From an uncultured Nitrososphaerota archaeon (GTDB lineage: Archaea > Korarchaeota > Korarchaeia > Korarchaeales > Korarchaeaceae): DNA of 32,000 nt. The notes below the pieces were generated by a model. That model was not told the DNA's origin and did not search any database. It saw nothing but the letters and a program-made list of their open reading frames with translations. Positions 359 through 26,512 of the stretch are shown one piece after another; position 1 is the stretch's first letter; the number at the start of each line of letters is the position of its first letter. The stretch is taken from assembly GCA_964480775.1 (NCBI GenBank), contig CAYZRF010000021.1, positions 1 to 32,000 on the forward strand, written 5' to 3'. Made by a program: the position numbers and the translations under genes.

Positions 359-393
359 GAATGCACCTCCCTGCGTGCAGGTGAGGAGTTCAA

Positions 394-834: not shown

Positions 835-862
835 CTCAACTCCCTCCAAATATGCTGTGCAT

Positions 863-1237: not shown

Positions 1238-1615
1238 TTGAACCAAACCATATCCTACGCAATAATCGGGACATTGGGCTTAGTTAGCTTAGTTGTATCC
1301 TTGCACGGCATCCAGCCATTTATCTCTGATATTGAAAGAAGAGTCGAAACTGGTTGTGTATACTCAGTTCTCAGTGCAATAAGCAACGTAGTCAATTCGG
1401 TTGTTGGTGGAGGGTCCGCTAGCGGAATAATATTTACTCCATTCCAAGTTAACCTTTCAGTTGTTGACAGAATCCTTTTTGCCAGTTGTGGCGATTACAG
1501 GGCAGATCTTGAATTTCCTTTCGAAATATCTCCATTAAATGCCTCAATAAGGGGGTTGGTCAGAATAAAGGCAACATGGTCTGAAAAGGGAGTTTCACTG
1601 GTGATTAAGGGATGA
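1238..1615 (+). CDS. hypothetical N-terminally anchored protein (locus 1 accessory operon, gene 1)
   Basis: 125-aa ORF with no ATG codon at all, so it needs a TTG start. It has one N-terminal hydrophobic helix (ISYAIIGTLGLVSLVVSL), and its stop overlaps the next start (ATGA). Confidence 0.5.
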   Translation: MNQTISYAIIGTLGLVSLVVSLHGIQPFISDIERRVETGCVYSVLSAISNVVNSVVGGGSASGIIFTPFQVNLSVVDRILFASCGDYRADLEFPFEISPLNASIRGLVRIKATWSEKGVSLVIKG

Positions 1616-1965
1616 ATGTAGAGATTGATGAAGCTTTAAGAACCTTAGTTTTTGTAGCATTACTCCTTGCTTCAGGGGCAATCTCCAATAGATTAGCATA
1701 CTTGAGAGTTAAGAACTTTGGATACAGACTAGCTTCTACCCTTACGGCCCTAAGCGAAAGATCAGTAAATCACAAAGTGGGTATAGCGCTAGAACTACCA
1801 GAGGGTAATTATTCCTTGATTTTCTTCGACAATGGTTCAGCTCTTTTCTCAATGAACGGGTACGAAATAGTTCTGAACGGCATTTCAACGGACTTAAGGG
1901 GGGAGATCCGAGGCGGGAAAGAATTACAGATTACAAGCAGAGGGGAGCTAATCCAAGATGGATGA
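1612..1965 (+). CDS. hypothetical pilin-like/anchored protein (gene 2)
   Basis: N-terminus MNVEIDEALRTLVFVALLLASG (an acidic residue, then a hydrophobic helix), followed by a beta-rich-looking C-terminal part. ATGA overlap with gene 1. Confidence 0.55.
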   Translation: MNVEIDEALRTLVFVALLLASGAISNRLAYLRVKNFGYRLASTLTALSERSVNHKVGIALELPEGNYSLIFFDNGSALFSMNGYEIVLNGISTDLRGEIRGGKELQITSRGELIQDG

Positions 1966-2059
1966 AGAAATTGCTGATGCAGTTTGGTTCATAATCGTGA
2001 TAGCAGCCCTAATACTAGCTATTTTGGCTAGCAACCCACCGCCCTCGCCAATAGGGTGA
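1958..2059 (+). CDS. possible 33-aa single-TM micro-protein (gene 3)
   Basis: Not in the ORF track because it is under 60 aa. ATG 1958 gives MDEEIADAVWFIIVIAALILAILASNPPPSPIG. It overlaps gene 2 by 8 nt, and its TGA overlaps the next start (GTGATG). Confidence 0.3.
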   Translation: MDEEIADAVWFIIVIAALILAILASNPPPSPIG

Positions 2060-2337
2060 TGAAGCTGAGGACAATTGCCTTTTTGATTGCCCTCTTGCTT
2101 TTATCTCTTCTAGTTATTGATCTTTCAATAAAGAGCATAGTTCCTTCTTGGGCAGTTAAGGCGAGAGAAGATATTGCTATTAGAACAGTCGAACTCTTTT
2201 GGAAGAAGGGTGTTCGACTCGTTTGGGAAGGAGGCTACAGAGAGAACCTCGATCCCTATGGATTAAGCGTTAAAATCAAAATTCCAGTGCCAAGCTCGCC
2301 AAATCAGATATGTGTTGAGATTTCATATAGGAGATGA
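2059..2337 (+). CDS. hypothetical N-terminally anchored protein (gene 4)
   Basis: MKLRTIAFLIALLLLSLLVIDL signal-anchor. The start is ATG 2059, or GTG 2056 as in the track. Confidence 0.5.
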   Translation: MKLRTIAFLIALLLLSLLVIDLSIKSIVPSWAVKAREDIAIRTVELFWKKGVRLVWEGGYRENLDPYGLSVKIKIPVPSSPNQICVEISYRR

Positions 2338-2341
2338 GAGC

Positions 2342-3331
2342 TTGAGAGAGGTTTTAGCTATCATAACGATTTTGATCTTGATACTTCCAACATTTATCGT
2401 CCCGGATACTAATATCTTGGATAGCAGAATAATTGATGCCGCTTTTGCGGAAAGTTCTGCATGGATGGAGTCCGAAATAGCCCTACCAAGATATCTCTCA
2501 TTCATTAGATGTCTGATAGATGAGTGGCTAGCCAATAACTATGGAAAGGATGTAGATCAAGTAAGACTTCCAAAGATCATAAATACAGAGGATTGGAAGA
2601 CATATGCCGAGAACGAAGCCAGGAGTAGGGGAATCATACTCTTTTGCAATGTAACGCCCGTAATATTGAGTAGGTCTTATGCAGCTAATGAACTACAAAA
2701 CAAGGTATTTGCTGGAGGATGTAAGCCAGGGGCTATAGGTGTGCAAAGTTCTTTATCCATCTTTGTAGTTTCGAAGAGGGGTTTTGCAGAAGCAGTCGCA
2801 AAGAGAAATTACTCTATTTCAGTTTGTCACCCCTGCCTCTATTTTCTAATAAAGGAAGCTCACAAAAAAATAGAAAAAGAGTTAGAAAACTTGATACCAG
2901 ACGAAACAGTAGTTGTTGGTGTGAGAAATGACTACATATCAGCAGTATTTCTGCTTAAATCCAAACTTTTAGATTTAGATAAGAAAATAGACGATCTTCT
3001 CACTTCATTAAAGAGAGAGTTCTCCTCAAAAGGAATAGAAATAGAATTCGACGTTAAGAGAGAAATTTCTATATCAAAAAGCGGAAATTCCGTGAGATTA
3101 ACTGTATCATACAAGTTTTACATAGAAGTCTGGGATAAAGAGGTTATTTATTGGGTTAGAGGCCTTCGAAAAGGCTGGTATTTGAAAAATGATCTCAAAT
3201 TGAAAGCCAAAATGTTGTGCAGGGTTCAAGAGGCGTTCAAAAGGATACCTACCAAAAATAGAGAGAAAGGACCTGAAAAAAGAGAGAAATCAAGGGAGAG
3301 GACAATACCTTGGCTAATACCGCCCAGATGA
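2342..3331 (+). CDS. hypothetical anchored protein with Lys/Arg/Glu-rich tail (gene 5)
   Basis: TTG 2342 lies 8 nt after AGGAG; the track uses GTG 2312. N-terminal helix LREVLAIITILILILPTF, then about 300 aa of soluble part ending KNREKGPEKREKSRER. No known motif recognised. Confidence 0.6.
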   Translation: MREVLAIITILILILPTFIVPDTNILDSRIIDAAFAESSAWMESEIALPRYLSFIRCLIDEWLANNYGKDVDQVRLPKIINTEDWKTYAENEARSRGIILFCNVTPVILSRSYAANELQNKVFAGGCKPGAIGVQSSLSIFVVSKRGFAEAVAKRNYSISVCHPCLYFLIKEAHKKIEKELENLIPDETVVVGVRNDYISAVFLLKSKLLDLDKKIDDLLTSLKREFSSKGIEIEFDVKREISISKSGNSVRLTVSYKFYIEVWDKEVIYWVRGLRKGWYLKNDLKLKAKMLCRVQEAFKRIPTKNREKGPEKREKSRERTIPWLIPPR

Positions 3332-3645
3332 GGATCATCCTTCTATTTAATGGCTTTAAAATATCAACCTATGATTGGTTCTTAGGATCAGAGACTATAT
3401 TCAATATTTTAAGGAGAATTCTAAAAAGCTTGCTTCTCGAAGTAGATAAAGGACTTCAATTCCTTAACAGAGTATTTACAGCTTTACTTCCAATTATATT
3501 CTTCATCTGGGTCCTGCTTTGGATCATGAACTTGGAGGAATTAAAAGGCCTTCAAAAATACATCAAGTGGTGGGTTCTATTCTGTTTTGTAATGATAAGC
3601 ATATCTCAAGGGCTTTCTTTCCTAATAAATGCGAAAATCGACTGA
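3328..3645 (+). CDS. hypothetical small membrane protein (gene 6)
   Basis: ATG 3328 overlaps the previous stop (ATGA). Two clear hydrophobic segments (LLPIIFFIWVLLWIM, WWVLFCFVMISI). Confidence 0.5.
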   Translation: MRIILLFNGFKISTYDWFLGSETIFNILRRILKSLLLEVDKGLQFLNRVFTALLPIIFFIWVLLWIMNLEELKGLQKYIKWWVLFCFVMISISQGLSFLINAKID

Positions 3646-4036
3646 GCTTTAGGTTTTTTATCAACTTTGGAAAGAGAACAATTGTAAAAGAAAACAAAAA
3701 ATAGTAGGAATGGAAATACCCCCTTCCTCTACTCAAACCAATGATGCAAGCAATAAACAAGATTTTTCCAAGGTCAAAGGAGGAAATAAGAGGGGAAATA
3801 GCAATAATGAACTTACAATCTCCGCCTCCAAAGCCAACGCCGTATAATGACAAAGCAAAAGGAATAGCAGCAAATATTCTAATGAAGACAGAAAAATGTG
3901 AATTTCTTAATAAAGAAAAGATGGAATTTAGAGAAAATAGGAATATATTCAATCTATTAGGTATCTTGCCTGTCTTGACATCTATCAGAGAACTCAACAA
4001 TGCTTCCAACATGGCTATAGCCATCATGAGCATCAT
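3563..4036 (-). CDS. minimal A24-family prepilin peptidase (TadV/CpaA-like)
   Basis: 157 aa and polytopic. It carries the two aspartate motifs of A24 peptidases: LIDVKTGKIPN and GFGGGDCKF. It follows the platform genes directly (TGA then ATG, 1-nt gap). Confidence 0.7.
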   Translation of the reverse strand: MMLMMAIAMLEALLSSLIDVKTGKIPNRLNIFLFSLNSIFSLLRNSHFSVFIRIFAAIPFALSLYGVGFGGGDCKFIIAISPLISSFDLGKILFIACIIGLSRGRGYFHSYYFLFSFTIVLFPKLIKNLKLSRFSHLLGKKALEICLSLQNRIEPTT

Positions 4037-4037
4037 A

Positions 4038-4613
4038 TCACCCGAATAAATTGCTGAGTAAGAAAGTTGTCATCAGAAAAGGTATTGAATAGTACATTAG
4101 CCACTTTAGGCCCCTTTCCACTTCTTCCGCAATAAATACTGTAAAAGCAGCTCCGATTAATCCAAAAGACACGAAATTGCTGTGAGGCTTTCCAAGAAGC
4201 ATGTACCAAAGGAGTTCAGATATCTTCGAAAAGGCAGCTGACATGACTCCCAACATCATGATCAAGAACCTTGCTAAATTCCTTCTATTTTTCAAGAGAG
4301 CTGCTCTCTCGGCCTCCAGCTCTTCTACAACTCTCACAATGGATGCAGTGTCCCTAAGCACTCTACCGATAAATTCTGGCTCTGCTCCAGAGGTCAATAT
4401 TTCAGCTAACCAAGGACCATAATCTCCGAGAACGGTTTGGAGATTCACCATAATTTCTTCAATTGTTTTGTCGTCGGCAATAGCTTTCATAACGAGATTC
4501 TTGATTTCAGGGTCAAAGAGAGCAACTTGCCTCAGTGCAACGACTGGGTGTCGATTAAGTTCCAGTGAATCGGCTAGTGCCTCTATTATCACCGTTTTCG
4601 AAGTCTTTTCCAT
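4038..4613 (-). CDS. single-domain T2SSF platform protein (TadC-like half)
   Basis: 191 aa with a helical T2SSF-type cytoplasmic domain followed by TM segments. It has its own AGGAGG 8 nt before ATG 4613 and overlaps the upstream gene by 25 nt. Confidence 0.7.
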   Translation of the reverse strand: MEKTSKTVIIEALADSLELNRHPVVALRQVALFDPEIKNLVMKAIADDKTIEEIMVNLQTVLGDYGPWLAEILTSGAEPEFIGRVLRDTASIVRVVEELEAERAALLKNRRNLARFLIMMLGVMSAAFSKISELLWYMLLGKPHSNFVSFGLIGAAFTVFIAEEVERGLKWLMYYSIPFLMTTFLLSNLFG

Positions 4614-5089
4614 AACTTAAACCTCCTAAATGAATATCTGAAGATTGAAACCACGAATAGACAAATAGAGGTTGGACCGATAAGAGAGGAAGGTATTGTA
4701 CCGAGAGCAGAAGCGCTAGCCAATAGCATCATTGTTAAGAAAGCCATAGATAGTCGGATGGCCATTTTATGGTCAAGTTCCTTATTTTCAAGCTCTATTT
4801 CCACTCTCATGAAGTTCTTTAGGGTATTAACGATGTCTTGAGAGTTTGCCCCTTGAAGAAGGGATCTAATTGCCACAGCTAAAGGGCGATAACTCAATTG
4901 TTCACAAAATGCGTTTAATTTGCTCTGAAGAGTGTATCCTTCAACAGAGGAAGTAAGAAACATAGTTCTCATTTCTTTAGCGTAAGGTTCAAGTTTGGAC
5001 CTAGCTACAAGTTCAACGGCCTTAATCGGACTCCAAGTGAGTCCTAGAGAAAACAGCTGAATGAACCTCATAACTTGCTTTCGATCCAT
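4589..5089 (-). CDS. single-domain T2SSF platform protein (TadB-like half)
   Basis: 166 aa with the same helical-domain-plus-TM pattern. AGGGAG lies 7 nt before ATG 5089, and it overlaps the end of the ATPase gene by 22 nt. Confidence 0.7.
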   Translation of the reverse strand: MDRKQVMRFIQLFSLGLTWSPIKAVELVARSKLEPYAKEMRTMFLTSSVEGYTLQSKLNAFCEQLSYRPLAVAIRSLLQGANSQDIVNTLKNFMRVEIELENKELDHKMAIRLSMAFLTMMLLASASALGTIPSSLIGPTSICLFVVSIFRYSFRRFKLWKRLRKR

Positions 5090-6501
5090 GAAGTAGCTCC
5101 CTTTATCCTCTTGATAACTTCTTCATTGGTCTTCAAGTTCAGCGAAGATCTGATCATTGAGAGAAACCTCTCTGAGGGTTTTGGTTTTACCTCCTCCCAA
5201 CCACTATCCTCATACCTGTAGAGTTTTTCGGCAACCCTAAATTCCATAAACAACGTTAAACACCCCATTAGAGCATCTTCCATTCCCCATCTAAACCATT
5301 TCCTCTCCAACGAGACAGGATCCTTAGCATGCGTTGTTGCGATCACCCTGAATCCGCTTTCTTTTGCTAGAGCAAAGGCTTTAGCGTGTTCTTCTGTAAG
5401 AATTTCCCCTAAAAAGACTAAATCAGGATTTCTATGCAAAAAGGTGGTCACCACACTCTCCCTTTCACCAGGAAAGACGTAGGGATGATGTTTAAGGCCA
5501 TAACGAGAAAAATCTTCAATTTCCCTTACTTCCTCGATGCTTATGATCCTCCATTCCCTAGCGGAATATGCTAGAAGAGAGTTAGCTAGTGTGGTTTTGC
5601 CTACGCCCGTTCTTCCAACAATCATGATTGGCTGTCTTTCGTACATGGCTTGTACTAAATAGGCTGCAAGGCTTTCACTTATCGTCCCTAACGCTATTAA
5701 GCGCGACATTGGAAGTCTCGGCAAAGCAGAAAGATTTCTTGCGTCAAACGAAGGTTTTGATATTGGAGGAATGTCAACTCCAAGTCTAATCTTAGAGTCC
5801 TTAAAGGTAAACTCAATCTTTACGGTGGGTTGGTTGAGGTTAAGGGACCCATAGGGATGCAACTCCACTATCGTTCTAATCTTTTCAAACTCCCTCCTAT
5901 CTAGGATTAAATTGCTAATTTCAACCCTACCTGCCTCGATGTGATCTATGTATACCGGAGAACCCTCAAGGCCGTAGATCTCAGTTATATCATTGCCAGT
6001 TGCCAAGATAAGAATGGGCCAAGCCTTTGTAGATCTTACAGCTGCTTCTAAGATAATGTCATCTCTTAAAATCTTATTAGAGCCGAGTATCTTTTTTATC
6101 TGGTTCTTTCGAAAATTTATAACGTCCCAAAGATCGATTTCCAATGAATCTTCTGGATAAACTCCTTCCATTAACCTAGAGAGACCTATTGCAAAGATCA
6201 CACTTCCTGAACCGCAAATCCAGCTCTTGGGTATGAAATAAGTCCTTTTACCATTCATGCCAAGCATAGCACATCCGAGATCCTCTATTATTTCATCAAA
6301 ATGTATCTTTGGGGTTTTTAGAGGAGGATAGGGTACTTCCTTTACAAACGCAATGTGCTTCTCGCTTCCAAGTGCTGCCAACAATCTTGCCTTGTCGTAG
6401 GTCTGATAAGGACTGAGAAAAAGATCTAAGGAAAACTCCTCTACCCACTTTATAGCTGCATTTACGAATCTATGATATGAGTTCTCCTCGTTAAGGCCCA
6501 A
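5068..6501 (-). CDS. PilT-class type II/IV secretion ATPase (TadA/CpaF/EpdL-like)
   Basis: Walker A GRTGVGKTT, Asp box IISIEEVREI, Walker B PDLVFLGEI, His box VIATTHA. TTG start 9 nt after the pilin stop, preceded by GGGGTGA. Confidence 0.9.
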   Translation of the reverse strand: MGLNEENSYHRFVNAAIKWVEEFSLDLFLSPYQTYDKARLLAALGSEKHIAFVKEVPYPPLKTPKIHFDEIIEDLGCAMLGMNGKRTYFIPKSWICGSGSVIFAIGLSRLMEGVYPEDSLEIDLWDVINFRKNQIKKILGSNKILRDDIILEAAVRSTKAWPILILATGNDITEIYGLEGSPVYIDHIEAGRVEISNLILDRREFEKIRTIVELHPYGSLNLNQPTVKIEFTFKDSKIRLGVDIPPISKPSFDARNLSALPRLPMSRLIALGTISESLAAYLVQAMYERQPIMIVGRTGVGKTTLANSLLAYSAREWRIISIEEVREIEDFSRYGLKHHPYVFPGERESVVTTFLHRNPDLVFLGEILTEEHAKAFALAKESGFRVIATTHAKDPVSLERKWFRWGMEDALMGCLTLFMEFRVAEKLYRYEDSGWEEVKPKPSERFLSMIRSSLNLKTNEEVIKRIKGATSWIESKL

Positions 6502-6510
6502 CTACTTGGT

Positions 6511-6792
6511 TCACCCCGTGGTGAGGTTGCCTCTGGCTAAATTCTCACTTTCTGAGCCCCAGAGGCTGCTAAGATGTTCGCTTAACCAATCAATGAAATC
6601 CGAAAATTTCTCTTCAGTAAGATCCGGTAGATTCCACAAGAACTCCAAAGCGTTTGCTACAGGGTTTACAACAAGAGCGAAGAAAGCAGCTATGGTGGCA
6701 GCAATCAAAAGAGCAGTTTCTGTTGTCTGAGTTAAACCAGATTCATCCTCTAAAAAACCCTTGATGAATCTTTTAATTTTCTTAAACAGCAT
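6511..6792 (-). CDS. Flp-type prepilin (93 aa)
   Basis: ATG 6792 is preceded by GGAGGTGAAA. The leader junction KGFLEDESG/LTQTTETALLIAATIAAFFALV resembles bacterial Flp/PilA (FLKDESG/ATAIEYGLI). The 119-aa version in the track is a spurious 5' extension across the promoter. Confidence 0.7.
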   Translation of the reverse strand: MLFKKIKRFIKGFLEDESGLTQTTETALLIAATIAAFFALVVNPVANALEFLWNLPDLTEEKFSDFIDWLSEHLSSLWGSESENLARGNLTTG

Positions 6793-6826
6793 TTTCACCT
6801 CCCAGAGGGGGAAAGCTTGGAAAGGG

Positions 6827-6834
6827 TATTTAAG
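6827..6834 (-). promoter_or_regulatory. putative TATA box of the Flp-like gene
   Basis: The minus strand reads CTTAAATA about 35 nt upstream of ATG 6792, which would leave a short SD-containing leader. Confidence 0.35.
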
Positions 6835-7064
6835 ACGTCTCTTAGCAGAATACATTGTTCTTGCAATCATTATTGGGCGTTTATGCTACTAAACACGTTG
6901 TTTTACTGATATCACTCATCAGAAAAACATAGGATATATTCAAGAGTAACAGGGTAGATATCCAAAGTTTTGCACTTAATTTATCATTTATTATCCCATC
7001 AAAAGGTTAATCTAGGAGGGGATTAGGACTAAAAGGATTCCTTTCTTCAAACTTTCTCATCAAC

Positions 7065-8225
7065 TCATCCAAAGCCTTCCAATACCAGAAGCATCCTATG
7101 GGCATCGGTTCTGGTAGCTTCAGAAGGGTTAATTGCTGCCCATATCAGTCTCTTTATCCCTTCTCCTTGAGGATCGCTAATTGAGCGAAGTTCATGCGGC
7201 CTTACTTCTAGAGATTTAGAAATAAGCCTAATAAACCAAGGAAATAGGGCCAAGATACAATTCTTAATGTCACCTGAATTTAAGAGATGTCTCGCTGCTC
7301 TAATTTCTTTAGATCCCTCTCTTCTTAACTTACTAACTAGTAAACAAAAAGAAAGATCTCTCAACGCAATTCCCAAAAAACCTATGGAGGAAATCAAAAA
7401 GAGAAAGGTGTTGAAGCACCCAGTTAAGACGGTGAATAGAGCAGATAAGATCAGCCTCTTTTTTGCTAATTGCTTCGATGTCTTAATTAGATCAAAAACA
7501 TCTAAATTTTCTACTTCTTTGCTTGGAATAGTTAGACGGCTTGATAACTTAAAAACCAAAAAAGGGCTGAGAAATAGGGCAAAAAAAGATAAATTTGTCT
7601 TCAAACGATAGATTAATGCAAAAACAGTAGAAGCTATGTTTAAACTAAATGCTATGTGGGAGAGTCTTATTTCTCCCTGGTAGCTCATATAACTAAGTAG
7701 AGGAATGCCAATAATTGATGAAAGTAGAAAATAGAAATTTGGAAAAGAAAAACTAACGACATTGAAGTCCCCCAAGAAAACTGCTATAGAAAATGTAACA
7801 GAACTAACTAGGGCCGAAATTGAAAGGTATTTTAGGAACGTAGGGAAGTTCTTTCTCTTCCCTATCTTCCGAGCTAGCAATAGGCTAACTGAATCACTGA
7901 AACCATACAACGAAGTCCATCCATACAGGAGCGCATGAATTGTTGATATAGAATTATCCAAATTCACAAAGGCTGGCAGATATAGAAACATCAGTACACC
8001 AGATATTCCAAGGCTTGTAAGACTTTGGAGATAAGAACATGCTCCTAGCATGGCCCCTAGAACACAAACGAGAAATAAACCTCCAAGATCGTCATAGGAC
8101 ACTTTTATCTGCCAAGCTAGACTATCCCCTATGCTTACTTCTCTTTTAAGTGCGCAAAAGTAGAGAGAGATTAACAGCACACCGTAAAGAATAGTTAAGA
8201 GATACAGGGCCTTATTTGGGTTCAA
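7065..8225 (-). CDS. hypothetical polytopic membrane protein with about 100-aa C-terminal soluble region
   Basis: 386 aa with many hydrophobic segments and a TTG start. It overlaps the stop of the ParA-like gene by 14 nt, which suggests co-translation. No motif recognised. Confidence 0.6.
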   Translation of the reverse strand: MNPNKALYLLTILYGVLLISLYFCALKREVSIGDSLAWQIKVSYDDLGGLFLVCVLGAMLGACSYLQSLTSLGISGVLMFLYLPAFVNLDNSISTIHALLYGWTSLYGFSDSVSLLLARKIGKRKNFPTFLKYLSISALVSSVTFSIAVFLGDFNVVSFSFPNFYFLLSSIIGIPLLSYMSYQGEIRLSHIAFSLNIASTVFALIYRLKTNLSFFALFLSPFLVFKLSSRLTIPSKEVENLDVFDLIKTSKQLAKKRLILSALFTVLTGCFNTFLFLISSIGFLGIALRDLSFCLLVSKLRREGSKEIRAARHLLNSGDIKNCILALFPWFIRLISKSLEVRPHELRSISDPQGEGIKRLIWAAINPSEATRTDAHRMLLVLEGFG

Positions 8226-9498
8226 TGAAATCCCTTCCCATGCCTTTGAGTTTTAGAAATGATAGTGCAAGATCCAAGAACATTCTATACTCTTGCGATA
8301 AGGATGAAATATCTAATTCCTGCCTAGCTGTCAAAGAGCTAGCTGTTTTCTCATCAAGACCCGCCAAAAGAAGTGCTTCCTTTAGATTTTTCCTCGTTAT
8401 GAATGCTTCCATTCCATCCGAGAACCTAAGTCTAACCTTTCTTCTAAAGAAAGGGAATAAATCAATGTGAAAACTAGAAGATTCTATCTCTCTGTAAATA
8501 TCTTTAGGAACTGGAACCTCTTTGGCCTGAACAATTCCCTTTATAGCTTCTAGTCGTGGATTGGTTTCTTCCAACAAATCACTGTACTGATTTGATAAAT
8601 AACCCTGTCCCGACGCGCCTAAGTCAATAGTTGGAACTTGATTATCAAAATTTCTTACAAAATGAAAGTCCTTACGAAATATCTTGATTAAATGCTTGGC
8701 CACACTCCTTTCTTTATAATCAATATCACCGTTGAAACCTTCAATTAGGGAGTGATAGAAAGTTGCCTCATGCATTCTTGAAAGTGAAATTGAACAACTT
8801 TGAATGCATCGAGAAAACGACTCATCAAAGGGCAATAAATAAGCAGGGACATTCCAATAAGTTTTTACTAGCTCTTGCAGTTCAGTTGATTGTAAATTAT
8901 GCCCATATTTGTTTATTATGACAAAAGGAGTCGAGAGATTGTTAATATCTAAAGAAAAAAGGTGTCTTTTTGTTTGAAGAATGGAATTTTTGTCTGGAAG
9001 CAAGACTGGGATTAGCAAACTGACCCATCTTGAGAGAGCCTTAAGCAGAACCCTTGCTGAGTAGTCCGATGATGGAAAATCTACTATGAGGAACTCAACA
9101 CCAATCTCGCGAATATATTCCTCTAAAGATCTTAGTCTAAGCAAAAGAAGATCAATTGGTTCGTACAACAGCGTCGAAACATCATCGCTTCCAGCAGGAA
9201 TTACTTTAAGCTTAATGAGATCAGAAAGTTTGCGCCTGATACTCGAGTCTTCGAGTGAAATCAACGGATCATATACTACTTCCTCAGGGAATTTATTCCC
9301 AAGTAAAACATCGTGAAGACCATGAAATCCCTCATTTCCAAGGAATAAGTACGTTAGATCGGCGTTATGTAGATTAGCATCCATAACCGCAGCCATCTTA
9401 CCCTCTTCTTCCATTAGATATGACATTATGAAGGATAGAGCCATGCTAACCGAGGTCTTACCAACCCCTTCGGTGCCAAAGAAACCTACTTTTAGCAT
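8212..9498 (-). CDS. ParA/MinD-family P-loop ATPase (TadZ/CpaE-like) with unknown C-terminal extension
   Basis: From ATG 9498 the protein opens MLKVGFFGTEGVGKTS, with the P-loop at the extreme N-terminus as in MinD/ParA. LIVDFPSS is a Walker B-like strand. The last 190 aa or so are unrecognised. The track's TTG 9573 start would overlap moaA. Confidence 0.7.
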   Translation of the reverse strand: MLKVGFFGTEGVGKTSVSMALSFIMSYLMEEEGKMAAVMDANLHNADLTYLFLGNEGFHGLHDVLLGNKFPEEVVYDPLISLEDSSIRRKLSDLIKLKVIPAGSDDVSTLLYEPIDLLLLRLRSLEEYIREIGVEFLIVDFPSSDYSARVLLKALSRWVSLLIPVLLPDKNSILQTKRHLFSLDINNLSTPFVIINKYGHNLQSTELQELVKTYWNVPAYLLPFDESFSRCIQSCSISLSRMHEATFYHSLIEGFNGDIDYKERSVAKHLIKIFRKDFHFVRNFDNQVPTIDLGASGQGYLSNQYSDLLEETNPRLEAIKGIVQAKEVPVPKDIYREIESSSFHIDLFPFFRRKVRLRFSDGMEAFITRKNLKEALLLAGLDEKTASSLTARQELDISSLSQEYRMFLDLALSFLKLKGMGRDFIEPK

Positions 9499-9539
9499 TA
9501 ACCCATCAATATGATGAACGCCTGTCTCAAAGACCCTAT

Positions 9540-10502
9540 TTAAGGAGATCTTGCCAGCGCAGTTTTCGGACAATGGGCTTCTGTGGACTTAAAGTAAGGT
9601 TCTCTTTGTGCAACAGCTCTTAATAAGGAGTTGACAACTCCGCCCCAGCTTCCTGATCTAAGTTCCTTTAGAAACTTAACAGGAGGTTTACTGGAAAGAA
9701 GGCATGTTTTAAAAGCGCCAAAATGAGTGACTCTAATTTTAGTGCAGTGATAGCAGAAATCAGGATTGCTCATAGACCTTACAAGCTCAACCTTAACATC
9801 TCCTAGGTCATATACTGGCCTATCGTGCATATCTTGACGTATTTTAATCGAAATTGCCTTTTCCTTTATTCTTTCCTCCAGCTCATGGAAATCTACGCCG
9901 TATTTCCTAAGAAGAGGGGAGTTTGGATCTCTATCTTGTAGTTCAATTAGCTGGACGTCAGCACCTATGTTAGCCGCAAACTCGATCAAAGAATCGAGTT
10001 CTCCTTCATTTAACCCCCTTAACATGACGCGGTTAATTTTAAGACGTTTTATACCGAACGATATAGATTTTTCTATCCCCCTCAACACCTTTTCGAGGCT
10101 ATCTACACCAGTAATTCTTTGATAAACCTCCTTTTTCAAGGATGGGAGGTTTACGTTGACCCTGTCGAGACCAGCTTCAATTAAGCCTTGAATTCTTTCC
10201 TCCAGAAGGGTTCCGTTTGTAGTGAGTCCTATGTCCTTTATGCCCTCAACCCTCCTGATCTGAGCTACTATCTCACTCAGATCTTCTCTAAGGAGGGGCT
10301 CACCCCCAGTCAGCTTTATTGTTCTGACGCCAAAGTCAGCAAGGATGGCAACGAGTCTACCAATGTCCTCAGGAGTCATTATTTCATTTTCTTCGTTATG
10401 ATAGCCCTCAGCATGGCAAAAGAAGCATCTTAGATTGCATTCATGGTTAACTGAGATCCTCAAGTTGAGCAGAGGCCTGTCATAGGGGTCTCTGAGTATC
10501 AT
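9540..10502 (-). CDS. moaA: GTP 3',8-cyclase MoaA (radical SAM)
   Basis: CNLRCFFCH radical-SAM cluster motif, a TIM-barrel-like body and C-terminal Cys residues (CYHC...C) for the second cluster. Confidence 0.92.
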   Translation of the reverse strand: MILRDPYDRPLLNLRISVNHECNLRCFFCHAEGYHNEENEIMTPEDIGRLVAILADFGVRTIKLTGGEPLLREDLSEIVAQIRRVEGIKDIGLTTNGTLLEERIQGLIEAGLDRVNVNLPSLKKEVYQRITGVDSLEKVLRGIEKSISFGIKRLKINRVMLRGLNEGELDSLIEFAANIGADVQLIELQDRDPNSPLLRKYGVDFHELEERIKEKAISIKIRQDMHDRPVYDLGDVKVELVRSMSNPDFCYHCTKIRVTHFGAFKTCLLSSKPPVKFLKELRSGSWGGVVNSLLRAVAQREPYFKSTEAHCPKTALARSP

Positions 10503-17159: not shown

Positions 17160-17211
17160 TTAGATGGTTTTGGAAAACCGACTTTTTTACCCAAGTAGGT
17201 TCGATATCTTG

Positions 17212-17493
17212 ATGTTAAGGAGCAAGGTTTTAGAGGCAATAAAAGAGTTTAACGAATTTAGAAGTCCAGAGGCAACAGCAAACTCGTTTTAATTAAAGAT
17301 AATAGGATTATCGTTAGGATGAATGGAACCTATTGTAGAACATGTGGCCTCTATGATTACTTTGAGGATCTTTCATGGAAAATCAAGGGATTACTTGAAA
17401 GCTAACGTAAAGATTCTGTCGACGAGAAGAATAGATCATTTCTCCTATGAAATCATATATGAGGTGGAATCTCTTAGTAAAAGATCTAAATGA
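17212..17493 (+). pseudogene. small gene apparently disrupted by two compensating frameshifts
   Basis: Frame A runs 17212-17292 (MLRSKVLEAIKEFNEFRSPEATANSF, then stop). The -1 frame from 17280 to 17405 reads KLVLIKDNRIIVRMNGTYCRTCGLYDYFEDLSWKIKGLLES. Frame A resumes around 17389 and runs to 17493 (DYLKANVKILSTRRIDHFSYEIIYEVESLSKRSK). Confidence 0.35.
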
Positions 17494-19084
17494 GAAGCAT
17501 CACCGCAAACGCAAGCAGAGAGAATATGAAAATCTCTCTAAAGGACGAGGTAAAGTGTCCTGTTCTAACAAGCCCCAAGGTTCCTCCCATCACTAACGTC
17601 TGAACAAAGGCTTGCATCATAATTCCTTCTCTGATTCTCTCTGCTTCATGAGGTGCGAGAAGAGGGATGTTTAGTATGTTCACTAACATGGCATAGGAAC
17701 CTATAACTAGCATGAAAGAAAACATTGCAGTAAAGTAATTTCCCATTTTCTCGCCCTCCGTTTCGATCCAGAGTTCCCTCAACCTAACGGCAAATTCTGA
17801 AATTGATGAAAAAGCCTCCTTAAGATCGGCTCCAGCCTCCAAAGCGGTCATAATAAGCAAAGTTGACATTCTCGAAACGCTTAGCTTTTGCCTCTCAGCC
17901 ATCCTCTTTAGAATTTCAGTATAAGGAAGTTTCAGTCCAGCCCAAGCCTTGACCCTGTTGGCGAAATCCTTCAAGGATTTGTATGTTATCTTCATGTATG
18001 TTATAGCGTCGCTAAAAGACCTTCCACTCCTTAGTTCAGAGAAGAGATCTTGAAGGAAAAGTGGGAAGTCAAAAGTCTCGCTTCTCAGCCTTTTTTCCTC
18101 CTTAAATATTTGCAAGAAGCCAGCTAAAGCCCCAAGGGAGGTAGAGATGGCTAATCTTTGCCACAGATTGAGAGAAAGAATTGGAATCGGGGATTTAATC
18201 AGCTTTACCAAAATTCGTGGGGGTAACTTATGAATTAGAACTGTAAAAATAAAATATACAGCAAAGAAAACGGCAATAAAAGATAACCAGGCTTTTATGA
18301 CGGTTCTTTTCTTAAAATAGAAGTACCTAGGGGCTAGAATCTTAAACAACAATACGAAGAAAGGAGATGGGAGTACTGAAGTCATAAGGACAAGGTTGCT
18401 CATTCCTCCTCCTCCGAATCCAGAGACCAAAGACTGAAACGTGAACATCAACATCAACACAAATGGGAGGGCGGTGGACGTCAGAGTATAAACGATTAGG
18501 ATCATCATCAGTCTTTCCATGCTACTTCTTACGTCCATCATGGTTTTCTCTACTGACTCATCAAGTTCCAGCTTTAGCATTTCATCTATGGCTTCTCCTC
18601 TAGTGAAGTAGTAATCGTGCAGTCTCGAGTAGATTCTTTTCCATACGCCACTAGGACATAGCCTGATGTTTGCCTCAAGCCCTTCTATTGTTCCAGCAGC
18701 TAACATTCTAGCTGATGCTGCTTGAAAATACTTTCTCACGTCAGTATCCTCTGCTATGTTACTAATCGCCTTGAATGAAGAGCCTAAAGATTTGCCCACC
18801 TTTTGTAACATCCAGAGAGTAGCTAGATAAGCCCAGATATCCTTTTCAAGCTTGCTAGCTATATTCAGATAGGATAGAAAAGGGGTAAATAGCATTAACA
18901 GTGATGGAAAGATCACTATGAACATAAGACGTACAGGATCCCTCATATAGCCAGTACGATAAAGAGCAGCAGCTATAGCCATCATAACGCCTCCAACGGA
19001 GGCGATTCTAAAGATAAACTCCTTCGGATCTTGGTCTGGTATCCCTGCTTTTATGAAGAACTCTTCATCGAAGAAGAGTACCAC
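17486..19084 (-). CDS. two-domain T2SSF platform membrane protein (FlaJ/TadC-like)
   Basis: 532 aa, with two helical cytoplasmic domains each followed by TM bundles. Its GTG start overlaps the ATPase stop by 1 nt. Confidence 0.8.
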   Translation of the reverse strand: MVLFFDEEFFIKAGIPDQDPKEFIFRIASVGGVMMAIAAALYRTGYMRDPVRLMFIVIFPSLLMLFTPFLSYLNIASKLEKDIWAYLATLWMLQKVGKSLGSSFKAISNIAEDTDVRKYFQAASARMLAAGTIEGLEANIRLCPSGVWKRIYSRLHDYYFTRGEAIDEMLKLELDESVEKTMMDVRSSMERLMMILIVYTLTSTALPFVLMLMFTFQSLVSGFGGGGMSNLVLMTSVLPSPFFVLLFKILAPRYFYFKKRTVIKAWLSFIAVFFAVYFIFTVLIHKLPPRILVKLIKSPIPILSLNLWQRLAISTSLGALAGFLQIFKEEKRLRSETFDFPLFLQDLFSELRSGRSFSDAITYMKITYKSLKDFANRVKAWAGLKLPYTEILKRMAERQKLSVSRMSTLLIMTALEAGADLKEAFSSISEFAVRLRELWIETEGEKMGNYFTAMFSFMLVIGSYAMLVNILNIPLLAPHEAERIREGIMMQAFVQTLVMGGTLGLVRTGHFTSSFREIFIFSLLAFAVMLLI

Positions 19085-20499
19085 TAAGCTCCCCTCCTAG
19101 CCCTTTCAACCCGCCTTCTTAGGTCTGCCACTTTCTCCTGATACTCTCTAACTATCGTTGATCTTGGAACTCCTTCTTTTGCAGCGATTTCAATGAATAT
19201 TTGGCTATTCTTTATTGGATCGCCTAAAAGCTCCCTACCCCTCTTCCTAACAAAGATGTCTCTTAGAATAACGTCGTCGGTTGTTGAATCATAGCTCAAT
19301 TCAGCTATCCTCACAACCCCCCTAAAGTTTCCTTCTTTCCTAAGCAGCGCTGCCACCTTAAAATCAGCTATCTGCTCGTTTGTGAGATTGATGGGATCAC
19401 CTCTAAGCCTCGCTAAGACTCCCTCTATGACGCTTGCATGGAATGTCGTGAAGCTGGTGTGTCCAACGTGTATGAACTGAACGAGCAATCTGACCTCGGC
19501 TCCCCTCGACTCTCCGACGACTACGTAATCGGGTCTCATCCTGAGCACGTCTCTCAGCAAATCGGGAATCTCCATTCCCTTGACTCCCATTCCTGGTGGT
19601 TGACCTATGAGAGAGGTCCAATTCTTGTGTTCAGGAAGGTATATTTCAGGGGTATCCTCGACCGTGACGATATGAGCGTGCTTTGGAAGGAGTGAGAGAA
19701 GGGCATTGAGGAAGGTTGTCTTCCCTGAGCCAGTTTCACCAACTATAAACCCTGAAATTCCATGTTCGGCCAGCAACCACAAATATGCAGCCGCTTCTAC
19801 TGAAACGGCTCCCCAAGAGATTAGTTGTTCAATCCTCGGTCTTACAACAAACTTCCTTATGGTAAAGGTAGTTCCACCTTCGCTGACCGCAGGTCCATAA
19901 AGGGCGTGAACCCTAGATCCATCTGGTAGTTTTCCCTCTAGCCTAGGAACAGCAAGCGACACCTGCTTTCCTACTCTTTCCGCTAGTTTGAGCACGATTT
20001 GTCTGGCTTCTTCCTCTGTTAACTCTATGTTTGTCTCTAACCAAGTCCCTTTCCCAGCTAGGTAAACAAAAAGCTTTCTACCCCCTCTCGCTGGTAAAGT
20101 CACATCTTCTACATAAGGATCCTTCATAATGGGATCGAGTTTCCCCAAACCCTCTATATCTCTTCTCAAATAGAATATAATAGAATTTAGTAAATCTTCA
20201 TCATATTTCTTCTTGAATTCCTTTAGAGTTCTCTTTGCTGCCCACTCATAAAGTTTGGTAAGCTTGTTTAGATCCTCAAAACTTATCCTAGAAAGAACGT
20301 AATCCTTTGCTTTCTCAAGTATTTCTTTATCTGGCATTGGGGGCTCTATAACAATGTATTTATCACCCTTGATACCCCTCCATGCAATTCCTTCAACCAG
20401 CTCAATGACTTCTTTTAGATCTTTAAGCTCAAGTTTCTTCCTCTTTTCCACAAGCGCCTGCTTTTCAGGCGTCGCTACCTGTTTCATGTGAAGGTGCAC
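19084..20499 (-). CDS. archaeal type IV pilus/FlaI-like assembly ATPase
   Basis: Walker A GETGSGKTT, Asp box IVTVEDTPE, Walker B PDYVVVGESRG, His box TTFHA. The start is GTG 20499 or ATG 20487. Confidence 0.92.
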   Translation of the reverse strand: MHLHMKQVATPEKQALVEKRKKLELKDLKEVIELVEGIAWRGIKGDKYIVIEPPMPDKEILEKAKDYVLSRISFEDLNKLTKLYEWAAKRTLKEFKKKYDEDLLNSIIFYLRRDIEGLGKLDPIMKDPYVEDVTLPARGGRKLFVYLAGKGTWLETNIELTEEEARQIVLKLAERVGKQVSLAVPRLEGKLPDGSRVHALYGPAVSEGGTTFTIRKFVVRPRIEQLISWGAVSVEAAAYLWLLAEHGISGFIVGETGSGKTTFLNALLSLLPKHAHIVTVEDTPEIYLPEHKNWTSLIGQPPGMGVKGMEIPDLLRDVLRMRPDYVVVGESRGAEVRLLVQFIHVGHTSFTTFHASVIEGVLARLRGDPINLTNEQIADFKVAALLRKEGNFRGVVRIAELSYDSTTDDVILRDIFVRKRGRELLGDPIKNSQIFIEIAAKEGVPRSTIVREYQEKVADLRRRVERARRGA

Positions 20500-20761: not shown

Positions 20762-20799
20762 AAAAGATAAAAAAGAGATGAAAGGAGGGCCTACCCTCC
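20762..20799 (-). terminator. hairpin plus oligo-U terminator after pilin gene 1
   Basis: The minus strand reads GGAGGG-UAGG-CCCUCC, a 6-bp stem with the stop codon in the loop (20784-20799). It is followed by UUUCAUCUCUUUUUUAUCUUUUC, with the T6 run at 20769-20774. Confidence 0.4.
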
Positions 20800-21240
20800 C
20801 CTGTAGAGGTATTCGGTCTGGGTGCCACCAGGACCATAGACTATTATAGAGTAACTCTGTGTAGCACTGTAGTTACCTAAGTTTACAGTAAGCTCTGCTA
20901 CTCCATTTACTTCTAAAACGTCATCGGAACCGCTAACCGCGCCAGCGAGATTGCTTACATCAAGCTTCTGGTTGTCGATAAAGACTTGCCAAGCGGCAGT
21001 ACTTCCCGCGCCTGAAATATCATTGGGCCCTAAGTTCTTTACGTATATTATGCCATTACTTGATCCCATTCCTGATACTGAAAGTACGGCCAGCGTTGTC
21101 TGCCCACCAACGGCCGAAGTCCTTCCTAAGGCGCCAAAGATGTAGCTTCCAATTGGACTAAAGATTAGTAGGGCTAATGCCACTCCTATTACTAGAATTA
21201 TAACCTCGACGGCAACTCTCGATATTCCTGCTCTTTTCAT
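20791..21240 (-). CDS. archaeal type IV pilin, paralog 1
   Basis: ATG 21240 follows GGTG. Class III signal peptide MKRAG/ISRVAVEVIILVIGVALALLIF. It shares blocks with paralog 2: YVKNLGPxDI, WQVFID, (Y/F)GP. Confidence 0.8.
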   Translation of the reverse strand: MKRAGISRVAVEVIILVIGVALALLIFSPIGSYIFGALGRTSAVGGQTTLAVLSVSGMGSSNGIIYVKNLGPNDISGAGSTAAWQVFIDNQKLDVSNLAGAVSGSDDVLEVNGVAELTVNLGNYSATQSYSIIVYGPGGTQTEYLYRGG

Positions 21241-21290
21241 ATCCCACACCTTCTATTCTTTTGTTGACCATGTAGTATACTAATGGAGAG

Positions 21291-21343
21291 TATAAAAATC
21301 CTACCATGAAAATCCATGAAAAACCATGAAATACTGTGAAATC
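21291..21343 (-). promoter_or_regulatory. pilin-1 promoter: TATA box plus four phased TGAAA[A/T] repeats
   Basis: The minus strand has TTTTTATA (21291-21298) 50 nt before the ATG. Immediately upstream, plus strand 21304-21343 reads CCATGAAAAT CCATGAAAAA CCATGAAATA CTGTGAAATC, an exact 10-bp period. Confidence 0.5.
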
Positions 21344-21436
21344 TTTTTCTAAACACATCAAACTTTAAAATTAAAGCATTAGAGCGTTTTTCCTTTTATC
21401 CAAGAATTTGGAATTTTTTCAAATTAGAAACTGTTT

Positions 21437-23962: not shown

Positions 23963-24955
23963 TCAGTCAGGTGGCTCTGGGGGAGGTGGTAGTTCTGGCG
24001 GCTCAATGCCGAATAGATCTGCACCCATTGATCTCCAAATCCAGTAGTACTCCACTCCCTCCTGATACCCTTCATAACTGATCCGATATGCCTCGTATGG
24101 ATCGTCGCAGTAGTAAACATCTATAGTTGCCTCAGAACCAGGCCTGTCTTGTGGATTTATGATTATTTGATCGGTCTCCATGCCAGATTTCTTGTACCTT
24201 ATGTTAAAATATGCAATTCCACCGAGACCTGTTAGACCTGGCGTACCTCCAAGAACAACCGTATCAGAAGCAAAGGGACCAAATATTCTTTTTATCTGGA
24301 AGGGCTCCAACGATATGTATTGACCCCAGAGAATCCTCCCATCTGTGTCAAAATCGAACTTGATCTCATAACTATTGCCTTCAAGGTTGAAAATTATTCC
24401 ATGGAAGGTAATTACCTGTCTCCTTCCACCTATGAACGGTAAGGAACTCTGCATCCAGAAGCACCATTTAGAGGGTAATATCCCGAACGGAGGCAAACCT
24501 TCTCCTCCTTCGTCGCCTCCTCCGCCCCCTCCACCACCGCCACCTCTGCCTTCACCTATCCTGTATTGAATGTCAGTTAGGTTGGTGCCTAGTATGCCAG
24601 TGAAATAGGTATCCCCTTTAGCAAGGGTGTAAATTACGATAACGTTTTCTCCGCCACCACCAATCAAAGGCACGGTAATGTTGTGATACCACAGCTCTAC
24701 CTGCTTAGTTAACATCTTCTCGCTAAGATACTTAAGGTGGTTATCTATGAACGAAGCCTGAACATCAGAACCCCCAGGCAGCTCGGCTGCCGTATTGACG
24801 ACTGTTGTCATGTAGGCTAGGGTGTCCACAAAATCCTCATGCACTCCTTCCTCAAGTTTTACTTCCGGCGGGCTCATGTAAGTAGCCAGCGTCATTATGA
24901 GCACTGTTATTACGAAGCCTACCAGCAAGATCGTTCCTGCGCCTTTTCTATTCAT
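23963..24955 (-). CDS. pilin-like protein with Gly10 linker and Pro-rich tail
   Basis: Class III-like MNRKG/AGTILLVGFVITVLIM. Ten consecutive Gly codons at 24515-24544. C-terminus PPELPPPPEPPD. The start lies 6 nt after GGAGGAGGA. Confidence 0.6.
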   Translation of the reverse strand: MNRKGAGTILLVGFVITVLIMTLATYMSPPEVKLEEGVHEDFVDTLAYMTTVVNTAAELPGGSDVQASFIDNHLKYLSEKMLTKQVELWYHNITVPLIGGGGENVIVIYTLAKGDTYFTGILGTNLTDIQYRIGEGRGGGGGGGGGGDEGGEGLPPFGILPSKWCFWMQSSLPFIGGRRQVITFHGIIFNLEGNSYEIKFDFDTDGRILWGQYISLEPFQIKRIFGPFASDTVVLGGTPGLTGLGGIAYFNIRYKKSGMETDQIIINPQDRPGSEATIDVYYCDDPYEAYRISYEGYQEGVEYYWIWRSMGADLFGIEPPELPPPPEPPD

Positions 24956-24958
24956 ACT

Positions 24959-25429
24959 TTATCCTCCTCCTGGAGACCACCCAGCATAAGCAATCGTGGC
25001 TCGGGGACCAAAAACTTTGATCGTATGCGAAACATTAGCATTGATTGCCTCCGAGAGAGTTATATTAATGGATTCTCCAACCCTTAAAGATCCTGAAGCA
25101 GGATCTAGCGAACTTATAGTCTTGAACTCATCATCTATAAAAACCTGCCATTCCGAGGGACCAGAGAATTCAATGTCAGAAGGACCCAAGTTCTTCACAT
25201 AAACCTTTGCATATGATCCCGCTGTTGCATTCCCAGGATCAAATGCCATTATCTGAATGTTTGATTTAGGGGTTCCGGCCTCAATTTTTCTGTAACTACC
25301 CCTAGTAGCCCCCAAAACCACTTGATAGACTAAGACGGCCAAGGCAATACCAAGTACCATTAGTACAATGGCCGTAGTAACCTGAGAGACTCCTCTCCTT
25401 CTTTTGCGAAGAACTTGCTGGGTGGTCAT
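24959..25429 (-). CDS. archaeal type IV pilin, paralog 2
   Basis: From ATG 25429 it reads MTTQQVLRKRRRG/VSQVTTAIVLMVLGIALAVLVY, a classic archaeal Pilin_N-type signal. The track's 25489 start would cross the TATA box. Confidence 0.8.
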   Translation of the reverse strand: MTTQQVLRKRRRGVSQVTTAIVLMVLGIALAVLVYQVVLGATRGSYRKIEAGTPKSNIQIMAFDPGNATAGSYAKVYVKNLGPSDIEFSGPSEWQVFIDDEFKTISSLDPASGSLRVGESINITLSEAINANVSHTIKVFGPRATIAYAGWSPGGG

Positions 25430-25454
25430 CCTAACATTAGGTGTATCCTTTGAG

Positions 25455-25556
25455 AATAAAAATGCTTTTGTATGCTTAGAATTTCGCATATAACCACGCT
25501 TTGAAATGAAATGAAATAATAATGAAATATTAATGAAATTCAGTGAAATATGAAAT
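25455..25556 (-). promoter_or_regulatory. pilin-2 promoter: TATA box plus seven TGAAAT repeats
   Basis: The minus strand has TTTTTATT (25455-25462) 25 nt before ATG 25429, implying a leaderless or very short leader. TGAAAT (plus strand) starts at 25502, 25507, 25512, 25523, 25534, 25544 and 25551. Confidence 0.5.
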
Positions 25557-25777
25557 AAATATATAGCATTTAATTTAAAGTTTTTTCGAGATAGAAATAA
25601 TTACTACTTCCTAATCCGTAGACAGATCATGGACTGAGAAGATAACAATAACAGGTGAAATAGTTGTTAGTTAAAAAATTTGAAACTTTTGCTTTCTCGC
25701 TGATACCCTTACTCCTTTCTGAGCACAAGATCTTTACTCCCAATTTATTAATTATCGCTTGATACCTTGTCGAGTTG

Positions 25778-26512
25778 ATGCCTAGAATAGAGCAAATTAG
25801 AATAACTGCCTCTTTATTAGTTCTCTTGATTGCAACCCTACAGGACATTAAAGATAGAGAAGTTGATGATGTAATCTGGCTGGTTGGTCTCTCTATAGGA
25901 GGAATTTTAGATGCCTTCCTCTTGTTTTCCGCGACACCAACAACACAGGAAATTTTACAGTATGTGAGATTCTCCATTCCTTTTCTGTTTATTATACTGA
26001 CTTCATGGCGCTTCAAGCTCATGGGAGGCGCCGATATACTTGCTTTCATCACTCTGGCGATACTTCAACCGAGTCATCCGCTAGGAAAGTGCATGTTTCC
26101 TCCGGCTTTCTGTACGATGCTGTACTCAAACTTTCTTATGCTTCTTGTTCCGTTTTCTTTTCTAATATGGAACGTGAGGCTTATACTAAAGGGAGAGAAT
26201 ATTTTTGATGGATTTAAAGAATCTTCTCTCAGAAAATTCATAGCAAGCCTTTTTGCAATAGCAATTCAAGCAGAAAGTGCTAAGAATTTCAAATTTTTCT
26301 CAGTGGCTCAGGAAGGGGGCTCCCCCGAGAAGAAATTTAGACTCGTCTCAGCACTCTCGATTCCAGAAACGAAAGAAGAACTGCCGAAGACAGAAGAACA
26401 TCTAGTGTGGATCTGTCCTTCGATCCCCATGATTCCATTTATTCTAGCTGGGTACGTGCTAACCATATTGATAGGGGACCCCGTGCTATTGTTGATAGAG
26501 ATCTTCAAGTAG
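25778..26512 (+). CDS. PibD/FlaK-like A24 prepilin (class III signal) peptidase
   Basis: Polytopic, 244 aa. Catalytic Asp motifs LQDIKDREVDD and LMGGADILAF. Divergent from pilin paralog 2. Confidence 0.8.
   Translation: MPRIEQIRITASLLVLLIATLQDIKDREVDDVIWLVGLSIGGILDAFLLFSATPTTQEILQYVRFSIPFLFIILTSWRFKLMGGADILAFITLAILQPSHPLGKCMFPPAFCTMLYSNFLMLLVPFSFLIWNVRLILKGENIFDGFKESSLRKFIASLFAIAIQAESAKNFKFFSVAQEGGSPEKKFRLVSALSIPETKEELPKTEEHLVWICPSIPMIPFILAGYVLTILIGDPVLLLIEIFK

Follow-up and report, generated by a model that had tools for sequence, protein, structure and literature searches.

Phased ATTTCA repeats upstream of two paralogous pilin promoters in a korarchaeal type IV pilus locus

According to PMC4858521, very little is known about the regulation of archaeal type IV pili. 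As described in PMC5512572 and PMC10665913, EarA acts at an archaellin promoter through a set of four 6-bp sites placed just upstream of the BRE, and these sites are required for activation; the protein belongs to the pfam07381 family (PMC4858521). At the flaB promoter of Sulfolobus acidocaldarius, ArnR boxes lie at about -43 to -84, and the regulators also act on aapF and upsX, as given in PMC6396743. They are presented in PMC4858521 as membrane-bound HTH proteins found in Sulfolobales and Desulfurococcales only. In Pyrococcus, each monomer of the Lrp/AsnC protein FL11 (PH1519) reads the 5 bp TGAAA/TTTCA, with Leu24, Ala34-Thr37 and His39 as contact residues (PMC2715240; PDB 2e1c). On the account given in PMC5512572, archaeal activators typically bind upstream of the BRE, and repressors usually overlap the BRE/TATA or the start site.

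The window (the whole stretch of 32,000 nucleotides analysed here, from an uncultured, heat-loving archaeon of the Korarchaeia) displayed four TGAAA pentamers on the plus strand, starting at 21307, 21317, 21327 and 21337 and reading (A/T)TTTCA on the coding strand, upstream of the promoter of pilin gene 1 (p1). The plus strand at 21304-21343 was CCATGAAAAT CCATGAAAAA CCATGAAATA CTGTGAAATC, and the coding (minus) strand from the array through the TATA box was gaTTTCAcagtaTTTCAtggttTTTCAtggatTTTCAtggtaggATTTTTATACTC. The four sites spanned 21307-21342 (minus strand) at exact 10-bp spacing, with their plus-strand cores (21307-21311, 21317-21321, 21327-21331 and 21337-21341) at -13, -23, -33 and -43 when the first T of the TATA box is taken as reference. 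Support for the array came from the pentamer positions, from shuffles and from in-register conservation in the related loci L009, L003, L012 and L014. A period-10 array was also called at 21303-21331 by Tandem Repeats Finder, and each unit alternated a 4-5 bp A/T tract with CATGG. The TATA box (21291-21298; TATAAAAA on the plus strand, TTTTTATA on the minus, coding strand) was part of the core promoter ATTTTTATACTC (21288-21299, minus strand). An 8-nt gap separated it from the proximal site (21299-21306, minus strand; tggtagga on the coding strand) and occupied the expected BRE position, an assignment made by position only. A GGTG Shine-Dalgarno-like motif (21247-21250, minus strand) preceded the pilin 1 ATG by 6 nt. 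The BRE, TATA box and start site were placed from conservation and spacing. The original prediction had described four TGAAA copies in 10-bp phase, directly 5' of the TATA box and on one face of the DNA. The copies were correct to the base, the array ended 8 nt upstream of TTTTTATA, and the one-face geometry held at p1 and extended to the promoter of pilin gene 2 (p2), where the conserved sites were 10-11 bp apart.

Like the EarA boxes, the p1 sites are several short 6-bp words just upstream of the BRE/TATA of a gene whose product is the major subunit of a filament built by a type-IV-pilus-like machine. The two sets differ in the word (TACATA for EarA versus ATTTCA, with an array consensus of A-TTTCA-T), in the host, which is euryarchaeal for EarA, and in the filament, which is there an archaellum; strict 10-bp phasing is not described for EarA boxes in the parts of the reports drawn on here. 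The FL11 operator TGAAA[AAT/ATT]TTTCA has a half-site pentamer identical to that of the arrays, all of whose cores are TTTCA, and FL11-type 13-bp boxes occurred in the same intergenic regions (21409-21421 in the window, with 1 mismatch; a perfect one in L012; TGAAATGATTTCA in L008). That operator is, however, an inverted repeat (abcdeWWWedcba), whereas the p1 array is a direct repeat of the half-site every 10 bp, which is not a canonical geometry for symmetric Lrp dimers. ArnR/ArnR1 boxes are also upstream elements of a filament-subunit promoter but consist of 15-bp inverted repeats, TCGAC-N5-GTCGA, and no such element was found in the p1 or p2 sequence. ParR/parC, omega heptads and PhoB boxes are examples of head-to-tail repeats with a spacing of about one helical turn, to which ribbon-helix-helix or winged-helix proteins bind cooperatively from one side of the helix; unlike the arrays, they belong to bacterial or plasmid systems and have different sequences. 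Members of the Lrp family occupy multiple phased sites and wrap the DNA around them, and in E. coli pili are under Lrp control. Regulator-site arrays upstream of the BRE at filament-subunit promoters are thus already known, and on sequence grounds the korarchaeal ATTTCA array joins them.

Pilin 1 (20791-21240, minus strand; ATG at 21238-21240) is a protein of 149 aa that carries a class III signal peptide and matches Arch_flagellin weakly. It starts with MKRAGISRVAVEVIILVIGVALALL, and its N-terminal 46 residues were nearly invariant among 28 homologs; homologs came from Korarchaeia-type MAGs and metagenomes, under names such as Ca. Methanodesulfokora and isolate Kor4. A terminator-like hairpin with a T-run lay across its stop codon (20781-20802, minus strand), an arrangement suggestive of a monocistronic pilin transcript from p1. 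Pilin 2 (24959-25429, minus strand; 156 aa, 32% identical to pilin 1) is the first gene of a minor-pilin operon, and the intergenic region between it and the divergent prepilin peptidase gene (Peptidase_A24 and Arc_PepC_II; 25775-26512, plus strand) holds the p2 array. The minus-strand order of the type IV pilus locus was pilin 2, five further ORFs without confident Pfam match, pilin 1, the secretion ATPase (T2SSE; 19084-20499) and a TadC/FlaJ-like membrane protein (T2SSF; 17486-19084).

Several other features of these genes were recorded. The pilus ATPase was intein-free in the window (471 aa), and orthologs carried one or two LAGLIDADG inteins (L003:853-3468, L004:10785-13529 and L006:7487-12082, of 871, 914 and 1531 aa, respectively). 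A period-12 CCTCCTCCGCCC repeat (24504-24550) encoded a poly-Gly stretch (GGGGGGGGGDEGGEG) in a 330-aa protein of the pilus locus, which ended in a proline-rich C-terminal tail (PPELPPPPEPPD). A conserved 85-87-aa ORF (MRKSKVLEAIKEFNEFRSPEATAEL...GTYCRMCGLYDYFEDL... in L009 and L014) was split across three reading frames in the window (17164-17493), and in L003 and L004 a frameshift after GTYC cut it short, reflecting either a pseudogene or recurrent assembly/frameshift behaviour. Positions 1-9600 harbored a second type-IV-pilus-like locus. It comprised a T2SSE-type ATPase whose P-loop is nSTAND3-like (5068-6501), a second, short prepilin peptidase (3563-4036) and several ORFs lacking any Pfam match; no TTTCA arrays were present there.

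The p1 array was beyond chance occurrence. The pattern TGAAA-N5-TGAAA-N5-TGAAA, allowing at most 1 mismatch, had two matches in the window, both within this array, against 0.02 expected from dinucleotide shuffles (0 of 100 shuffles reached two). TGAAA occurred 148 times in 64,000 strand positions, a frequency at which a run of four with exact 10-bp spacing would be expected about 2e-6 times per window. When all 1020 non-homopolymer pentamers were scanned, same-strand clusters of at least four copies in the window derived only from the p1 array and from the array at 25502-25555. Across about 404 kb of related DNA, same-strand clusters of at least three TTTCA were restricted to p1 and p2 and always in coding-strand orientation, and three further loci (61 kb in total) held no TTTCA cluster. 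The specificity scans covered the window and about 465 kb of related DNA. The original prediction had raised the question of phased arrays elsewhere, and no other intergenic region in this related sequence had one.

A contig scan with the ATPase retrieved only two loci, both of which broke off at the ATPase start and so included no promoter. Syntenic loci were obtained via pilin homologs, and their p1 promoters were compared with the TATA box TTTTTATA as anchor, which was invariant in 8 of 8 aligned orthologous promoters, array-less ones included. TTTCA was found at -13, -23, -33 and -43 in the window and in L009/L017. The same four positions were occupied in L012, with the two proximal units degenerate (TTCCA, TTTCT), and L014, L013 and L018 displayed TTTCA at -13, -23 and -33. 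L014 had exactly one 10-bp unit fewer, its upstream module being shifted by 10 and the phase kept. In L003, whose contig begins inside the array, one unit contained a 1-bp insertion. In L008 the array had decayed, the distal unit remaining as the near-palindrome TGAAATGATTTCA. Arrays were therefore present in five lineages (the window and four further) and decayed in one more (L008), with an unchanged register to the TATA box.

The motif repeated upstream of the BRE/TATA was conserved above background: pairwise identity was 0.77-0.85 in the TTTCA cores against 0.43-0.58 around them (0.49-0.58 in the spacers, 0.43-0.57 in the flanks), with 0.69-0.75 for the 8 nt at the BRE position and 1.00 for the TATA box, in statistics that rest on about five lineages of related sequences. 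The phase-averaged conservation profile peaked on T-T-T-C-A, plus one spacer G, and the GG of the Shine-Dalgarno-like motif was invariant in the ortholog alignment. Conservation in orthologous pilin promoters, which the original prediction had proposed as a check, was thus observed, with a fixed TATA register and cores more conserved than spacers.

Upstream of the paralogous pilin gene, where the same hexamer had been reported to cluster, seven ATTTCA sites occupied 25502-25556 (minus strand). Their plus-strand TGAAA starts were 25502, 25507, 25512, 25523, 25534, 25544 and 25551, corresponding, relative to the TATA box, to -44, -49, -54, -65, -76, -86 and -93. The p2 core promoter ATTTTTATTCTC (25452-25463, minus strand) stood 33 nt before the conserved ATG, a TATA-to-ATG spacing that implies a leaderless or nearly leaderless mRNA, and the layout was ...tttaTTTCAtaTTTCActgaaTTTCAttaataTTTCAttattaTTTCATTTCATTTCAaagcg-N33-ATTTTTATTCTC-N22-ATG. 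The ATG of the longest ORF (25487-25489) was not conserved among orthologs and aggATGacc was, so that the p2 array is promoter DNA and not coding sequence. The core ATTTTTAT(A/T)CTC, previously noted as common to both promoters, was present at 21288-21299 and 25452-25463. An inverted half-site, CGAAA (25482-25486, minus strand; about -24 to -20), lay between the p2 array and the TATA box and was TGAAA in L009 and L014.

The p2 spacers were AT-rich, and 5- and 7-bp spacings also occurred, the five sites with 10-11 bp spacing being those conserved in most lineages. In four lineages (the window, L009, L012 and L014), the p2 array was conserved at -93, -86, -76, -65, -54 and -44. The half-turn site at -49 was restricted to the window and L009; the sites kept were those spaced by 10-11 bp, two of them degenerate in L014. 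Over 38 exact sites, the consensus was A(34/38)-TTTCA-T(24/38). The helical phase derived from the site positions was 8.0-9.5 (mod 10.5) from the TATA box for all phased sites of both promoters, a suggestive common phase.

Both arrays were absent in L004/L005/L015 and in L006/L007/L016, where the core promoter was retained. Identity of the TadC and ATPase proteins to those of the window was 79-85% in these array-less lineages, comparable to the 83-87% in the array-bearing L012/L001 and L014. The p1 and p2 arrays were either both present or both absent in 6 of 6 lineages, the pattern that dependence on a single trans-acting factor would produce. Judging from the absence in L004/L006, the decay in L008 and the single degenerate units in L003, L012 and L014, the array is dispensable or replaceable. 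As a separate observation, L004 (9400-10573; also L005 and L015) carried an additional pilin copy that shares 82% identity with pilin 1 and is preceded by a coding fragment of the ATPase N-terminus (KELKKKYDEEALESLIYYLKRDIEG...), which looks like a recombination or cassette-insertion scar with a duplicated core promoter.

Further upstream, each promoter displayed a distal module: TTTCTA-att-TGAAAAAATTCCA at p1 (21409-21430, minus strand), centred about -117 from the TATA box, and ATTTCTA-tct-CGAAAAAACTTTA at p2 (25576-25598, minus strand), centred about -120. The two were identical at 20 of 26 positions, with the common form ATTTCTA-N3-(T/C)GAAAAAA(T/C)T..AAATT. A 13-bp part of the p1 module (21409-21421) was the one place in the window that fitted the FL11-type box TGAAAWWWTTTCA with at most 1 mismatch, a count that is not significant alone (0.61 expected). 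Over 465 kb, five of the six such matches fell in the intergenic DNA of p1 or p2 in members of the array-bearing clade, and a perfect FL11-type box, TGAAATATTTTCA, was present in L012 at 7294. Between the distal module and the p1 array, an element GCTCTA-N5-TTAATTTTAAAG (21362-21385) was conserved in the window, L009 and L012 and partly in L014 and L008; it could be a second TATA-like box or the terminator of the upstream operon.

A wider comparison included 51 metagenomic pilin loci. In a Methanodesulfokora-like group of more distant Korarchaeia (pilin 45-51% identical), a perfect palindrome, TGAAATATTTCA, was located 7 nt upstream of TTTATATA, and its half-site was the hexamer of the window arrays; its centre is 2 bp, versus 3 bp in the FL11 operator. 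The palindrome occurred in 22 loci, many of them close relatives and so not 22 independent cases. The copies checked were upstream of pilin genes, and no further occurrence with at most 1 mismatch was found elsewhere in those loci. Palindrome loci included L021, L028, L030, L031, L039, L043-L045, L047, L050-L053, L057 and L063 (e.g., L047:2389-2400). A second promoter class (L024, L040, L041, L056) displayed GAGAATATTCCA in place of the palindrome, and the higher-GC, more distant pilin loci L066-L068 had neither arrays nor palindromes. Divergently upstream of palindrome-bearing pilin genes, a small AbrB/SpoVT-like protein (VRMDDKGRVLIPKELRK...) was encoded, adjoined in L047 and L044 by a gene that by eye is PIN-like (L047:1353-2062, L044:2254-2963, L030:779-1069 and L045:3933-4223). 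This pair is probably a VapBC-type toxin-antitoxin system with strain-level synteny; as a DNA binder, the AbrB/SpoVT-like protein is also a possible candidate regulator.

No recognisable transcription-factor gene was found in the window (Pfam on 30 ORFs, with no match to the EarA family pfam07381 either), and tblastn with E. coli Lrp as query retrieved no Lrp-like gene in 465 kb of related loci, a weak match in L064 not being an Lrp. The conserved 85-aa ORF and a 140-aa ORF were considered and set aside: the first resembles a CxxC protein, with a frameshift in the window, the second resembles a membrane protein, and neither has the look of a DNA binder. The array could not be read as overlapping Lrp palindromes, having at least 3 mismatches to TGAAAWWWTTTCA; matches to that box with up to 3 mismatches numbered 66 in the window against 64 expected. 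Since the array pentamer equals the FL11 monomer half-site, an FL11-like Lrp/AsnC (FFRP) protein is a candidate for binding the array, offered by analogy and as a lead only. A ribbon-helix-helix or winged-helix binder of direct repeats is a possible alternative candidate. The literature search returned nothing specific on ATTTCA/TGAAAT motifs in archaea or on korarchaeal pilus regulation.

It appears quite probable that the arrays are a selected protein-binding regulatory element. For the fuller reading, in which an ATTTCA(T) module is read by one sequence-specific protein that would co-regulate and activate both paralogous pilin promoters of the korarchaeal type IV pilus locus, the balance tips slightly in favour. 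Several protein copies would line up on the same side of the helix at successive turns, covering about -13 to -43 (p1) and about -44 to -86 (p2) as counted from the TATA box. The proximal p1 site adjoins the BRE position, so the copy bound there may contact or stabilise TFB/TBP and so activate transcription of the major pilin, as EarA, Ptr2 and ArnR-type activators do. The regulator is probably an activator, since the arrays lie upstream of the BRE position, where archaeal activators bind, in the manner of the EarA and ArnR boxes; relative to the predicted start sites they extend from about -39 to -73 (p1) and from about -70 to -123 (p2). The interpretation in the original prediction, a cooperative activator bound upstream of BRE/TATA, was supported in part, namely for a selected cis-element tied to the two pilin promoters.

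The opposite sign of regulation is less likely but a real alternative, and p1 would suit it just as well: a silencing filament or other repressor could polymerise over the repeats and block TFB/TBP at the p1 BRE/TATA, the pilin being switched on only when it leaves. With only 8 nt between the proximal p1 site and the TATA box, a bound protein could overlap the BRE, and the inverted half-site of p2 (-24 to -20) is near that element as well. The array-less L004 and L006 keep an intact core promoter, consistent with an array unneeded for basal activity, and surface filaments are often kept off by repressors, such as ArnA/ArnB and AbfR1 in the account of PMC6396743. Against a repressor, most of the p2 array is 44-93 bp upstream of the TATA box, a range typical for upstream activating sites, and no site covers the TATA box or lies downstream of it; by the account of PMC5512572, archaeal repressors are usually placed over the BRE/TATA or the start site.

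Three further explanations fared less well. An effect of DNA shape, with 10-bp phased T-tracts bending the DNA or positioning an archaeal histone or chromatin protein by the TATA box and thereby tuning promoter strength, seems improbable. An alternation of A/T tracts every 10 bp favours bending and histone wrapping, the p1 units do alternate such a tract with CATGG, and the repeats keep a conserved phase to the TATA box; yet the C and A of TTTCA, which bending does not need, were conserved as well as the T's, the p2 array has AT-rich spacers and 5- and 7-bp spacings, and the palindrome of the same hexamer in distant relatives points to base-specific recognition. The predicted curvature of the two arrays was only at the 82nd and 78th percentile of the window, a weak measure from a rough wedge model. 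That the array is a functionless by-product of slippage, an ancestral 10-bp minisatellite in slow decay, is still less credible, although it would account for the period-10 tandem repeat call, the difference of one unit in L014 and the decayed units in L008, L012 and L003. It would leave unexplained that cores were conserved over spacers in a fixed TATA register, that the same hexamer recurs with another spacing at a paralogous promoter whose gene is 32% identical, that both arrays are present or absent together, and that the window holds no other such repeat. Finally, the repeats could belong to a 5' leader RNA transcribed from an upstream promoter (e.g., TTAATTTTAAAG, about 21362-21373) and act as UUUCA protein-binding or structural elements, in line with the conserved A/T-rich element about 25 nt upstream of the first repeat. 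This is highly improbable, given the invariant TTTTTATA downstream of the array, spaced for a start about 27 nt before the ATG, and the conserved GGTG. The predicted fold was no better than shuffles (z = +0.2), the window had no Rfam match, and at p2 the array is followed after 40 nt by the TATA box, which is itself 33 nt from the ATG.

A broader conjecture, which we hold to be rather unlikely, would link the two promoter types: one regulator would use the ATTTCA half-site in two geometries, as the dimer-type palindrome TGAAATATTTCA in Methanodesulfokora-like Korarchaeia and as head-to-tail arrays in the lineage of the window, there polymerising over about 40-50 bp on one face up to the BRE and joining the distal box at about -118 in a wrapped or filamentous activation complex. 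If this were true and the protein were an FL11-like Lrp, it would represent an undescribed binding mode for the family and the first defined regulon in Korarchaeia, for which no pair of transcription factor and site was found in the literature. Korarchaeia are almost entirely uncultured, and the array offers a 7-bp consensus, defined positions, natural array-loss variants and a candidate protein family. Array-bearing genomes, such as GCA_037917635.1 (Kor4), and array-less ones, such as GCA_964618805.1, provide a comparative handle for profiling the regulator, and a half-site that one lineage repeats head-to-tail and another pairs into a palindrome is useful for the study of how archaeal promoter architecture evolves.
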